A stretch of 64,000 bases of DNA from Escherichia coli. Lineage in GTDB: Bacteria > Pseudomonadota > Gammaproteobacteria > Enterobacterales > Enterobacteriaceae. A program made the translations under genes and the position numbers. The stretch lies in the NCBI RefSeq assembly GCF_048403405.1, contig NZ_CP183129.1. One strand, given 5' to 3'. Of the stretch, positions 6,227 through 41,917 are shown piece by piece (the first letter of the stretch is position 1; each line of letters begins with the position of its first letter). The notes below the pieces were generated by a model, which had not been told where the DNA came from, did no database searches, and saw only the letters and a list, made by a program, of their open reading frames with translations.

Positions 6227-6568
6227 ATGATGAAAAAAAGTATTCTGGCGATTCTGTTACTCACCAGTTCTGCAGCGGCGCTGGCGGCACCGCAGGTGAT
6301 TACCGTCAGCCGTTTTGAAGTGGGTAAAGACAAATGGGCGTTTAATCGCGAAGAGGTGATGCTGACTTGCCGACCGGGTAATGCTTTGTATGTCATCAAC
6401 CCAAGTACCCTCGTGCAGTATCCTTTAAACGATATCGCACAAAAGGAAGTTACCAGTGGGAAGACTAAAGCCCAGCCCATTTCGGTGATTCAGATTGATG
6501 ATCCTAACAATCGCGGCGAAAAAATGAGTCTGGCACCGTTTATAGAACGAGCTGAAAAACTCTGTTAA
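6227..6568 (+). CDS. yebY: Periplasmic protein YebY (DUF2511)
   Basis: 113-aa ORF with signal peptide; third gene of the yobA-yebZ-yebY operon. Confidence 0.85.
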
Positions 6569-6597
6569 TTACCTAAAATAGCCTTTTGATTTCCAAT

Positions 6598-6640
6598 AAA
6601 AAAACCGCCTCAGTTCTTTCACCAGAACGGGCGGTTTTTA
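6598..6640. terminator. Bidirectional rho-independent terminator (yebY on the plus strand, RyeA on the minus strand)
   Basis: Hairpin aaaCCGCC...GGCGGttttt with an A-run on the left and a T-run on the right. Confidence 0.6.
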
Positions 6641-6726
6641 ACATTTAAGCTGATGACCACCGCGCTTTTTATTGACCATTTTGCACGCAAACTGGAAAAC
6701 CTGGCGTCGTCATCTATTCTTAAAGG

Positions 6727-6829
6727 GCAAGGCATCTAAGCCTGCATTAATGCCAACTTTTAGCGCACGGCTCTCTCCCAAGAGCCATTTCCCTGGACCG
6801 AATACAGGAATCGTGTTCGGTCTCTTTTT
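6727..6829 (+). ncRNA. sdsR: Small RNA SdsR (RyeB), sigma-S-dependent Hfq-binding sRNA
   Basis: Sequence GCAAGGC...TAAGCCTGCATTAATGCCAACTTTTAGCGCACGGCTCTCTCCCAAGAGCCATTTCCCTGGACCGAATACAGGAATCGTGTTCGGTCTCTTTTT recognised as SdsR, ending in a terminator hairpin plus U-run; lies between yebY and pphA as in K-12. Confidence 0.8.
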
Positions 6830-6963
6830 ATCTGTTAAAAGCCAGAAGCATTCCCTTCGCTGACTTTATAGTCAACCATAACACACACTCTACTGTCTGA
6901 GTCCAGCGTTTTTTAACATTCTTGTTAAGATTATGTGATCTTTAGCGCGGGAGGAAAATATTG

Positions 6964-7620
6964 ATGAAACAGCCTGCGCCCGTTTATCAGAGAATTGCGG
7001 GTCATCAATGGCGACATATCTGGCTTTCAGGCGATATACACGGTTGTCTTGAGCAGTTGCGCCGCAAATTATGGCATTGTGGTTTTGATCCGTGGCGAGA
7101 TTTACTTATCTCAGTGGGAGACGTTATCGATCGTGGGCCGCAAAGTTTACGTTGCCTGCAGTTACTGGAACAACATTGGGTTCGTGCGGTAAGAGGCAAT
7201 CATGAACAGATGGCGATGGATGCGCTGGCATCCCAGCAGATGTCTTTATGGTTGATGAATGGCGGCGACTGGTTTATTGCGCTGGCAGATAATCAACAGA
7301 AACAAGCGAAAACGGCGCTGGAAAAATGTCAGCATTTGCCCTTTATTCTTGAAGTACACAGTCGCACCGGCAAGCATGTTATTGCTCATGCCGATTATCC
7401 GGATGATGTTTATGAATGGCAAAAGGACGTCGATTTGCATCAGGTCTTGTGGAGCCGCTCGCGATTAAGTGAACGCCAAAAAGGGCAGGGAATTACAGGT
7501 GCTGATCATTTCTGGTTTGGTCATACACCGTTGCGCCATCGCGTGGATATTGGCAACCTGCATTATATTGATACAGGTGCTGTCTTTGGGGGCGAACTGA
7601 CTGTTGTGCAATTGCAATAA
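6964..7620 (+). CDS. pphA: Serine/threonine protein phosphatase 1 (PPP family)
   Basis: 218 aa from ATG 6964; GDIHG and GNHE metallophosphatase motifs. Confidence 0.9.
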   Translation: MKQPAPVYQRIAGHQWRHIWLSGDIHGCLEQLRRKLWHCGFDPWRDLLISVGDVIDRGPQSLRCLQLLEQHWVRAVRGNHEQMAMDALASQQMSLWLMNGGDWFIALADNQQKQAKTALEKCQHLPFILEVHSRTGKHVIAHADYPDDVYEWQKDVDLHQVLWSRSRLSERQKGQGITGADHFWFGHTPLRHRVDIGNLHYIDTGAVFGGELTVVQLQ

Positions 7621-21672: not shown

Positions 21673-22341
21673 TCCTTCCTCAATCTTGAGTAACCCCGTC
21701 GTTGAAGGGTTACTCAATTCATCCTGATTATACGCACTGCCATGGTGCAACTGCTTCAAATTAAAACTCTGGTCTGACTTCAAATAATTATCATATTATT
21801 TATTTGCGTAACGGGATATCAGAAAAAGATATTTAGCCCATTAATTTATTAGGATGTTTACATCGGATTTGTGATTAAGTGTGGTATTATTTATTAGCGA
21901 AACGTTTCTCTCTTGATTTTTTTGCGCATTCATCAATTTTTCTTATTTTAAATTTACAATACCTTTGGCGATTGACTTCTCTTTGGGGTGATCGATAGCC
22001 GTTAACTGACTGTTTTATGAGAAAAAGTGATATAACTTTTTATTCATTGCATAGCAGAAAATGTGATATTGCACGCACTATGTAATAACTTCTCCCACTG
22101 GCCTGGAACAACTGAACTTATTGAACTATGTTAGAAAATACGTCAGTTTAAGTATCTGCCTGAACTGGCAAGGTTAAGCACAATGATATATCGGCGCGTA
22201 TTCCGTTGCATAAGTGTGCAAAAAAAGTGGAAGACGTATCGAGATTTGTGCGTCTGATCGAGACATGTTTAAAAATGGCTTGCCATAATTAACGTTGTAT
22301 GTGATAACAGATTTCGGGTTAAACGAGGTACAGTTCTGTTT

Positions 22342-22485
22342 ATGTGTGGCATTTTCAGTAAAGAAGTCCTGAGTAAACACGTTGACGTTGAATACCGCTT
22401 CTCTGCCGAGCCTTATATTGGTGCCTCATGCAGTAATGTGTCAGTTTTATCTATGTTATGCCTGCGGGCGAAGAAAACAATCTAA
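22342..22485 (+). CDS. yobF: Small protein YobF, co-transcribed with cspC
   Basis: 47-aa [50 protein letters not shown] ending 12 nt upstream of cspC. Confidence 0.85.
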
Positions 22486-22497
22486 GGAATTTTTCAA

Positions 22498-22707
22498 ATG
22501 GCAAAGATTAAAGGTCAGGTTAAGTGGTTCAACGAGTCTAAAGGTTTTGGCTTCATTACTCCGGCTGATGGCAGCAAAGACGTGTTCGTACACTTCTCTG
22601 CTATCCAGGGTAATGGTTTCAAAACTCTGGCTGAAGGTCAGAACGTTGAGTTCGAAATTCAGGACGGTCAGAAAGGTCCGGCAGCTGTTAACGTAACAGC
22701 TATCTGA
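22498..22707 (+). CDS. cspC: Cold-shock-domain protein CspC
   Basis: 69-aa [72 protein letters not shown]; RNP motifs. Confidence 0.97.
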
Positions 22708-22752
22708 TCGAATCCACTGATCTGAAGTGTGAATACGCTTCAATCTCGCTAT

Positions 22753-22780
22753 AAAGCCTCGTCGAATGCGAGGCTTTTTA
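22753..22780 (+). terminator. Rho-independent terminator of yobF-cspC
   Basis: AAGCCTCG-tcgaat-GCGAGGCTT followed by TTTT. Confidence 0.75.
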
Positions 22781-22872
22781 CTTTGCTTTATCTTCGCTCC
22801 AGTCGTTCGGATATTTGCCCGCCGCGTGATTCGCGTTACACTTGCGGCCTTTAGTATCCTGCCGGAGTTGTC

Positions 22873-40186: not shown

Positions 40187-41871
40187 TTGAAGAAGGTTTG
40201 GCTTAACCGTTATCCCGCGGACGTTCCGACGGAGATCAACCCTGACCGTTATCAATCTCTGGTAGATATGTTTGAGCAGTCGGTCGCGCGCTATGCCGAT
40301 CAACCCGCGTTTGTGAATATGGGGGAGGTGATGACCTTCCGCAAACTGGAAGAACGCAGTCGCGCGTTTGCCGCTTATTTGCAACAAGGGTTGGGACTGA
40401 AGAAAGGCGATCGCGTTGCGTTGATGATGCCTAATTTATTGCAATATCCGGTGGCGCTGTTTGGCATTTTGCGTGCCGGGATGATCGTTGTAAACGTTAA
40501 CCCGTTGTATACCCCGCGTGAGCTTGAGCATCAGCTTAACGATAGCGGCGCATCGGCGATTGTTATCGTGTCTAACTTTGCCCACACTCTGGAAAAAGTG
40601 GTTGATAAAACCGCCGTTCAGCACGTAATTCTGACCCGTATGGGCGATCAGCTATCTACGGCAAAAGGCACGGTAGTCAATTTCGTTGTTAAATACATCA
40701 AGCGTCTGGTGCCGAAATACCATCTGCCAGATGCCATTTCATTTCGTAGCGCCCTGCACAACGGCTACCGGATGCAGTACGTCAAACCCGAACTGGTGCC
40801 GGAAGATTTAGCTTTCCTGCAATACACCGGCGGTACCACTGGTGTGGCGAAAGGCGCGATGCTGACTCACCGCAATATGCTGGCGAACCTGGAACAGGTT
40901 AACGCGACCTATGGTCCGCTGTTGCATCCGGGCAAAGAGCTGGTGGTGACGGCGCTGCCGCTGTATCACATTTTTGCCCTGACCATTAACTGCCTGCTGT
41001 TTATCGAACTGGGGGGCAGAACCTGCTTATCACTAATCCGCGCGATATTCCTGGGTTGGTAAAAGAGTTAGCGAAATATCCGTTTACCGCTATCACTGGC
41101 GTTAACACCTTGTTCAATGCGTTGCTGAACAATAAAGAGTTCCAGCAGCTGGATTTCTCCAGTCTGCATCTTTCCGCAGGCGGAGGGATGCCTGTTCAGC
41201 AAGTGGTGGCAGAACGTTGGGTGAAACTGACTGGACAGTATCTGCTGGAAGGTTATGGCCTGACCGAGTGTGCGCCGCTGGTCAGCGTTAACCCGTATGA
41301 TATTGATTATCATAGCGGTAGCATCGGTTTGCCGGTGCCATCGACGGAAGCCAAACTGGTGGATGACGACGACAACGAAGTACCACCGGGTCAACCGGGT
41401 GAGCTTTGTGTCAAAGGGCCGCAGGTGATGCTGGGTTACTGGCAGCGTCCGGATGCTACCGATGAAATCATCAAAAATGGCTGGTTACACACCGGCGACA
41501 TCGCGGTGATGGATGAAGAAGGATTCCTGCGTATTGTCGATCGCAAAAAAGACATGATTCTGGTTTCCGGTTTTAACGTCTATCCCAACGAGATTGAAGA
41601 TGTCGTCATGCAGCATCCTGGCGTACAGGAAGTCGCGGCTGTTGGCGTACCTTCCGGCTCCAGTGGTGAAGCGGTGAAAATCTTCGTAGTGAAAAAAGAT
41701 CCATCGCTTACCGAAGAGTCACTGGTGACTTTTTGCCGCCGTCAGCTCACGGGCTACAAAGTACCGAAGTTGGTGGAGTTTCGTGATGAGTTACCGAAAT
41801 CTAACGTCGGAAAAATTTTGCGACGAGAATTACGTGACGAAGCGCGCGGCAAAGTGGACAATAAAGCCTGA
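40187..41871 (+). pseudogene. fadD: Long-chain acyl-CoA synthetase FadD, interrupted by a -1 frameshift in a G6 run at 41011-41016 (premature stop at 41060-41062)
   Basis: Two ORFs (40121-41062 and 41056-41871) in different frames each encode a contiguous part of FadD (...[13 protein letters not shown] | [22 protein letters not shown]...); restoring one G rejoins them. TTG start at 40187. Confidence 0.85.
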
Positions 41872-41917
41872 GCGTTAAGTCAGTCGTCAGACGCCGGTTA
41901 ATCCGGCGTTTTTTTTG
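41830..41917 (+). ncRNA. sroD: sRNA SroD, derived from the fadD 3' end; boundaries approximate
   Basis: Established sRNA annotated at the fadD 3' end / fadD-rnd intergenic region in K-12, ending at the fadD terminator; placement from recalled annotation. Confidence 0.35.

Follow-up and report, generated by a model that had tools for sequence, protein, structure and literature searches.

The 395-bp spacer between yebY and pphA (positions 6569–6963) in the Escherichia coli window analysed here, a 64-kb stretch of chromosomal DNA, is almost certainly the chromosomal sdsR/ryeA locus, in which two small RNA (sRNA) genes occupy opposite strands; we put the probability of this reading at about 0.97. 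The pair is an already known feature, and the window adds nothing new to it. Its discovery dates from 2001, and detailed dissection followed between 2012 and 2019.

In the K-12 reference (NC_000913.3), ryeA (b4432, 272 nt) and sdsR (b4433, 104 nt) lie on opposite strands between pphA and yebY. Open reading frames (ORFs) and mapping of the K-12 annotation placed yobA, copD/yebZ and yebY upstream of the spacer of the window and pphA downstream of it. The DNA is E. coli chromosome: the 441-bp stretch from 6540 to 6980 occurs with 100% identity in several complete genomes, and it has a match in 5,425 of 5,426 complete E. coli assemblies. Comparison with K-12 over 6560–6970 revealed four differences in 411 positions (6647, 6662, 6735 and 6853), all of which fall outside the promoter hexamers and both terminators. 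The whole window was scanned against Rfam at gathering thresholds, which yielded four matches, two of them in the spacer. Alignment to curated SdsR and RyeA sequences, proposed as a check in an earlier sequence-only reading of the window, gave full-length Rfam matches for both families, and the K-12 genes map to the same place. No sequence feature contradicting the sdsR/ryeA assignment was found in the window. The features of the locus are listed in Table 1.

Table 1. [quoted passage not shown]
Feature	Position	Strand	Evidence or remark
yebY CDS, last of the yobA-copD/yebZ-yebY cluster	6227..6568	+	113-aa ORF; K-12 annotation mapped by alignment
RyeA (SraC) antisense RNA, ~270 nt primary	6596..6867	-	K-12 mapping, RACE, in vitro transcription, Term-seq
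Bidirectional-type intrinsic terminator	6598..6639	both	Folds on both strands; RyeA 3' ends in the minus-strand U-tract
Segment covered by RF00101	6689..6833	-	Full-length match; 5' end equals processed RyeA 5' ends
sdsR promoter, sigma-S-type extended -10 box TCTATTCTTAA	6713..6723	+	Unique in window; K-12 promoter mutant
SdsR (RyeB) sRNA, ~103 nt	6727..6829	+	RF00111 match, K-12 mapping, primer extension, Term-seq
SdsR intrinsic terminator, 11-bp stem 6795-6823 plus CUUUUU tail	6795..6829	+	Terminator scan, fold
Phage attachment core (attB), last 26 nt of SdsR, unoccupied	6804..6829	.	Direct repeat at E423 prophage
ryeA sigma-70 promoter	6875..6914	-	Unique in window; K-12 promoter mutant; identical to K-12
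pphA CDS, phosphatase gene	6964..7620	+	ORF; K-12 annotation mapped by alignment

The sdsR and ryeA genes

On the plus strand, the sequence-only reading had recognised SdsR at 6727–6829 with a terminator of its own, and Rfam, the K-12 annotation and a Term-seq 3' end at 6829 all bear this out. The SdsR_RyeB model (RF00111) matches 6730–6829 over model positions 1–100 of 100, scoring 113.1 bits against a gathering threshold of 38 (E 3.6e-21), and the K-12 sdsR annotation aligns to 6726–6829. In K-12, primer extension placed the SdsR start 1 nt downstream of the older annotation, which corresponds to 6727 in the window, and the 3' ends were found at +100 to +102 (Choi et al. 2019). The primary SdsR 3' end in Term-seq data, K-12 1923104(-), corresponds to 6829 (Adams et al. 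2021, supplementary table). The RNA has a three-hairpin architecture ending in an intrinsic terminator, which folds at -15.8 kcal/mol and supplies the U-tailed 3' end at which Hfq would bind. Compared with SdsR (RyeB) of RF00111, the gene in the window covers the full model, lies adjacent to yebY and has a sigma-S-type -10 box with C at -13; it differs at nt 9. This T for A exchange (6735) is the single substitution relative to K-12 in 103 nt; within the 5' stem-loop it occupies the apical loop, at a position that is variable in the Rfam consensus.

A sigma-S-type promoter was expected upstream of 6727, and TCTATTCTTAA was found there. It consists of the hexamer TATTCT (6715–6720), a C at -13 (taking 6727 as the start) and a TAA extension, and it occurs once in the 64-kb window, against 0.02 matches expected by chance. 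On the opposite strand, the ryeA promoter comprises an A6 tract (6914–6909), a -35-like TGGACT (6905–6900) and an extended -10 element, TGtTATGGT (6883–6875). The combination TGGACT-N16-TGtTATGGT (6905–6875) is likewise unique in the window, with 0.00 matches expected by chance. In the K-12 promoter mutants, TATTCT of sdsR and TATGGT of ryeA were each replaced by CTCGAG, as specified by the oligonucleotides of Choi et al. 2019. Both -10 boxes read here are the hexamers mutated in that work, so that our reading matches the experimentally tested boxes.

The K-12 ryeA annotation maps by alignment to 6867–6596 on the minus strand, with which the predicted span of the RNA pair, 6594–6870, agrees to within 3 nt. 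Three RyeA start sites are known in K-12, the most downstream of which begins AAAGTCAGCG, corresponding to 6867, and the 3' ends obtained by RACE, at +261 to +270, correspond to 6607–6598 (Choi et al. 2019). The primary RyeA 3' end in Term-seq data, K-12 1923337(+), corresponds to 6596, and two internal RyeA 3' ends correspond to 6812 and 6763 (Adams et al. 2021). The sequence-only reading had RyeA end on the minus strand at a hairpin at 6598–6640; the K-12 ends from RACE and Term-seq fall there, and the hairpin is identical to that of K-12. Since in vitro transcription yields products of about 100 nt (SdsR) and about 270 nt (RyeA) (Choi et al. 2019), both RNAs end independently of Rho.

RyeA extends across all of sdsR and across the sdsR promoter; the complete SdsR complement occupies RyeA nt +39 to +141. 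Read on the minus strand, the SdsR terminator folds weakly (z -1.3) and is followed by no U-tract, which explains how RyeA passes through this hairpin. Compared with K-12 b4432 (SraC, Tpke79, IS091; RF00101), RyeA of the window has the same promoter, start, extent of about 270 nt and terminator. It differs by substitutions at 6647 and 6662, between the terminator hairpin and the sdsR promoter, at 6853 (RyeA +15) and at 6735.

The symmetric hairpin beside yebY

The terminator at the yebY end of the spacer was predicted at 6598–6640 as bidirectional, and its shape is indeed of this type, with a stable GC-rich stem and a U-tract on both strands. It is laid out as an A7 tract (6598–6604), a stem-loop CCGCC...GGCGG (6605–6634) and a T5 tract (6635–6639), and lies 30 nt after the yebY stop codon. 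The plus strand folds at -19.8 kcal/mol (z -6.0) and is followed by UUUUU; the minus strand folds at -20.6 kcal/mol (z -3.8) and is followed by UUUUUUUAU. On either strand, none of 200 shuffled sequences was as stable. A simple terminator scan reported the SdsR terminator only and missed this hairpin, the apparent loop of which exceeds the limit of the scanner; the hairpin was recovered by direct folding and an inverted-repeat search. A weak inverted repeat (I3; 9 nt, 89% complementary) is present at 6652–6660 and 6706–6714.

We scanned species-representative genomes with a pattern for the SdsR core, which gave 120 loci, ranging from Escherichia to Yersinia, Serratia, Dickeya and Hafnia. In nearly all of them the gene immediately upstream, on the same strand, is yebY; the position of SdsR downstream of yebY was stated by Frohlich et al. 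2012. The immediate downstream neighbour is pphA only in E. coli and some Citrobacter. The sigma-S box of sdsR is conserved at a fixed offset across Enterobacteriaceae. By comparison, the E. coli-type ryeA promoter block is patchy, being present at 24 of 115 loci, or at 25 of 109 with a slightly relaxed pattern. It occurs with fixed spacing in E. coli and in some Citrobacter, Enterobacter, Leclercia, Lelliottia, Silvania, Atlantibacter and Pseudescherichia, and is absent from the loci scored in E. albertii, Salmonella, Klebsiella, Raoultella, Kosakonia, Serratia and Yersinia. A promoter unique to E. coli had appeared from a strict -10 pattern; that pattern was too narrow, and alignment together with the relaxed search gave the 24–25 loci.

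A terminator hairpin stands at the equivalent position in 72 of the 109 Enterobacteriaceae loci scored, and in 69 loci it is found with both the A-tract and the T-tract. These tracts, each of at least 4 nt, flank the hairpin at all 25 loci with the ryeA promoter block and at 44 of 47 without it; some of the species without the block have other antisense promoters, as described by Frohlich et al. 2012. The outer stem is near-invariant, and the next two pairs are changed on both sides, with pairing kept, in 10 and 17 sequences, respectively. The inner stems differ wholly between genera, and each folds by itself. The covariation and the independently folding inner stems argue that the hairpin is under structural selection. 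A patchy ryeA promoter beside a conserved hairpin agrees with the account of sraC by Frohlich et al. 2012, in which sraC is poorly conserved, its promoter elements shift between species and its 3' end is conserved.

Given its canonical shape, its position and its conservation with compensatory changes, the hairpin may plausibly also terminate the yebY mRNA. It resembles the bidirectional intrinsic terminators that lie between convergent units, being a GC-rich hairpin flanked by A- and T-tracts between the convergent yebY and ryeA; however, direct experimental support, from K-12, exists here for the RyeA direction only. Thus the hairpin might be one-directional in vivo, a RyeA terminator without a material role in ending yebY transcripts. 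Among the K-12 Term-seq entries searched (Adams et al. 2021), only a RyeA-strand 3' end lies at the hairpin and no yebY-sense end, and the plus-strand U-tract is short, with five U before AACAUUU. A search of the literature for yebY together with a bidirectional terminator found no paper linking the two. Yet the missing yebY peak may only reflect low expression of yebY or the extent of the table searched. A GC-rich stem with a T5 tract follows 30 nt past the yebY stop codon and folds on the plus strand with the z-score given above. Moreover, at 47 loci without the E. coli-type ryeA promoter the hairpin is preserved, with compensatory changes and a T-tract of at least 4, which fits a function for yebY. 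On this balance we regard the one-directional alternative as unlikely and favour a hairpin that would serve both strands.

The Rfam match to RyeA and the coding potential of the spacer

The SraC_RyeA model (RF00101) matches 6833–6689 on the minus strand over its full length, with 172.8 bits against a gathering threshold of 37 (E 1.2e-39). This match has to be read with care. Minor processed 5' ends of RyeA were mapped at +33/+36 in K-12 (Choi et al. 2019, Table 1) and coincide with the 5' end of the RF00101 match at 6833, while the primary start is at 6867. A short SraC species of about 150 nt depends on RNase III (Frohlich et al. 2012). The coincidence of the 5' ends indicates that Rfam models a processed core of about 145–150 nt rather than the primary transcript. 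Furthermore, RF00101 scores 140–177 bits in Salmonella, Yersinia and Serratia, where the E. coli-type ryeA promoter is absent, because the model amounts to SdsR in reverse complement, extended by about 40 nt of the sdsR promoter. The RF00101 match is therefore not independent of the SdsR match, and the independent evidence for RyeA in the window is its promoter and its terminator. In general, a match to the Rfam RyeA model alone is not acceptable as evidence of an antisense RNA, since the model mirrors SdsR.

Taken to its end, this argument would leave SdsR as the sole real gene and the RyeA match as a mirror-image artefact of the model. The high scores in the three genera without the promoter block, and the span of the match, which equals the SdsR complement and the adjoining promoter stretch, are what such an artefact would produce. 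Against it, the window carries the exact K-12 RyeA promoter (TGGACT-N16-TGtTATGGT) and the exact terminator, and in K-12 primer extension, RACE, in vitro transcription, promoter mutation and Term-seq have demonstrated that RyeA is initiated at this promoter and terminated at this hairpin. We consider the artefact highly improbable and retain RyeA as a real second gene.

Less probable still, to the point of being negligible, is that the spacer codes for a small protein instead of or besides the RNAs. Two ORFs in the mechanical list overlap the RNAs, one of 63 aa on the plus strand (6672–6863) and one of 38 aa on the minus strand (6735–6619), and the latter has an ATG here, created by the T at 6735. 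But this start is ATG only in the window; other E. coli (K-12 has A at 6735) and E. albertii have TTG at this place, and TCG or TTA is found elsewhere. Only 16 aa of the 38-aa frame are left in Salmonella and Klebsiella, and in-frame stops interrupt the 63-aa frame in all genera other than Escherichia. Where amino acids seem conserved, the stretch coincides with that of the conserved SdsR sequence and the sdsR promoter. The statement of the sequence-only reading that no ORF explains this spacer (put at about 390 bp) therefore stands, the start codon and frame of both ORFs being unconserved outside Escherichia.

Proposed working of the pair and variation downstream of SdsR

The cis elements of the pair are present in this sequence, at the expected positions and nearly identical to those of K-12. 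What has been learnt in K-12 and Salmonella of expression, dependence on sigma factors, degradation, interference and targets would carry over, and enables us to describe a putative working of the locus. In stationary phase, sigma-S RNA polymerase would make SdsR, which would associate with Hfq and repress trans-encoded mRNAs through base pairing. The leaky SdsR terminator would, in addition, let the sdsR promoter drive pphA. During exponential growth, sigma-70 polymerase would make RyeA, which is predicted to stop at the hairpin beside yebY. Given perfect complementarity over about 103 nt, RyeA is expected to pair with SdsR along this length, and RNase III would degrade the duplex. Convergent transcription from the ryeA promoter may also interfere in cis with transcription of sdsR and pphA. 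Together, duplex decay and interference would restrict SdsR, a toxic RNA when over-expressed, to stationary phase, with RyeA acting as the antitoxin.

This scheme follows published work on the pair. In vitro, sdsR depends on sigma-S and ryeA on sigma-70, and in K-12 transcriptional interference was observed along with mutual degradation of SdsR and RyeA; the SdsR terminator is leaky, and dicistronic sdsR-pphA read-through supplies most of the pphA mRNA (Choi et al. 2019). Sigma-S dependence of SdsR, its association with Hfq and its repression of ompD, a target reported in Salmonella, were described (Frohlich et al. 2012). Reported SdsR targets in E. coli include tolC and yhcB. Some other trans-acting sRNAs are neutralised by a fully complementary cis-encoded antisense RNA, with RNase III acting on the duplex. 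The likeness of SdsR/RyeA to other RNase III-processed sRNA/antisense pairs is one of mechanism only; the sequences and organisms are unrelated, and no membership of a common family is implied.

The 3' end of SdsR doubles as a phage attachment site. About 237 of the 5,426 complete E. coli genomes are without an intact spacer, and three cases were inspected. In strain E423, a prophage of about 40 kb separates SdsR from the ryeA promoter and has on either side an imperfect direct repeat of 26 bp that corresponds to 6804–6829 of the window. The prophage genes for integrase and excisionase start 131 nt past SdsR and are encoded on the antisense strand. A second strain has an IS4-family element inside sdsR, and a third has IS200C between yebY and pphA, with the start of the transposase gene about 135 bp past the yebY stop codon. 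Phage PhiW104 uses the final 23 bp of ryeB as its att site in Salmonella, and its lysogeny swaps the 5' part of ryeA and alters ryeA expression, as the work is reported in PMC7380047 (Balbontin et al. 2008). The E423 prophage repeats this situation in E. coli. As at this ryeA/ryeB insertion hot spot, a common core of about 23–26 bp at the SdsR 3' end flanks the prophage in E. coli lysogens; in the window the site is empty, and RyeA consequently keeps its native promoter. Downstream of SdsR, E. albertii, Salmonella and K. oxytoca carry a different sequence, which is like the phage side of the E423 junction and holds a second att-like copy; it is probably, to judge from this resemblance, the remnant of such an integrated element.

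The hairpin is kept with or without the ryeA promoter, and the DNA downstream of SdsR has been replaced repeatedly by integrating elements. These two observations led us to a speculative reading of the locus as a swappable antisense cassette, in which the element at the att site would supply the antisense RNA that restrains SdsR and the conserved hairpin would be the fixed stop that protects yebY. In lysogens, the phage integrase gene, which is directed towards sdsR and ends 131 nt away, could provide the antisense RNA by read-through. We hold this reading to be rather unlikely, if worth stating. It was partly anticipated by the change of ryeA expression on lysogeny, as far as PMC7380047 relates it (Balbontin et al. 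2008). If true, it would tie the control of the SdsR 'toxin' to the state of a prophage.

In summary, a known sRNA pair and its boundaries proved recognisable from raw sequence to within 1–3 nt. NCBI automated annotation of non-K-12 E. coli genomes leaves the yebY-pphA spacer unannotated, and the 'empty' intergenic regions of genomes annotated in this way may contain well-characterised RNA genes.

Annotation and RNA-family models

In non-K-12 E. coli genomes of RefSeq, NCBI automated annotation lists no feature in the yebY–pphA spacer, and the two well-characterised RNA genes that it holds are annotated only in the curated K-12 record. Among the RNA-family models with a match in the window, the Rfam RyeA model amounts in essence to SdsR and the sdsR promoter read in mirror image. 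This model also scores 140–177 bits in species without the E. coli-type ryeA promoter, namely E. albertii (locus L005), Salmonella diarizonae (L116), K. oxytoca (L064) and those of loci L008, L019 and L009. Thus, its match is not independent evidence for an antisense RNA. Given that the Rfam model named after the cspA thermoregulator takes in the cspA coding region, its match in the window probably reflects paralogous coding-sequence homology rather than a demonstrated thermosensor.

RNA-family matches and the phage attachment site in the window
Feature	Coordinates	Strand	Remarks
RF00101 (SraC_RyeA)	6689-6833	-	
Phage attachment site	6804-6829		final 26 nt of SdsR; unoccupied
cspA thermoregulator (Rfam)	22322-22782	+	139.7 bits; covers yobF (22342-22485) and cspC (22498-22707)
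SroD, known sRNA	41830-41915	+	full-length match, 115 bits

Variation of the locus

Across 5,425 complete E. coli genomes, the yebY–pphA spacer is interrupted in about 237, by prophages as well as insertion sequences. Examination of loci L123 and L125 revealed an IS4-like ISVsa5 within sdsR, near window position 6735/6736, in one E. coli strain, and an IS200C in the spacer, shortly 3' of yebY, in another. The entire spacer is missing from one E. coli genome, and one of the spacer matches is plasmid-borne. At position 6735 itself, the window carries T as against A in K-12, which alters nucleotide 9 of SdsR, within the 5' hairpin loop. This T also creates an ATG on the opposite strand, the start of a 38-residue open reading frame that is not conserved.

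In three Yersinia loci (L044, L067 and L099) and one of Izhakiella (L100), the yebY homologue departs from its usual same-strand upstream position and is found on the opposite strand or more distantly, suggesting a local rearrangement. The exact SdsR core pattern is also present in two records labelled Chryseobacterium (L085) and Flavobacterium (L086). In L085 the core adjoins an enterobacterial-type yebY (72% identity), and the upstream sequence of L086 is too short for this check; both are probably contaminated or mislabelled assemblies.

Phage integration at the 3' end of sdsR

The 3' end of SdsR serves as a phage attachment site, one already known in Salmonella (Balbontin et al. 2008, as cited in PMC7380047). 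In E. coli E423 (L124 and L126), a prophage of about 40 kb encoding an integrase and an excisionase is inserted at this end, flanked on both sides by an imperfect 26-bp direct repeat. As a result, the ryeA promoter is cut off from SdsR. Furthermore, E. albertii, S. diarizonae and K. oxytoca (L005, L116 and L064) share an alternative sequence about 40–120 nt 3' of SdsR, which contains a second copy resembling the SdsR terminator (..CTGTATTCGGTCTTTTTTGG..) and is similar to the E423 junction on its phage side. The alternative downstream sequence is probably the remnant of an integrated element.
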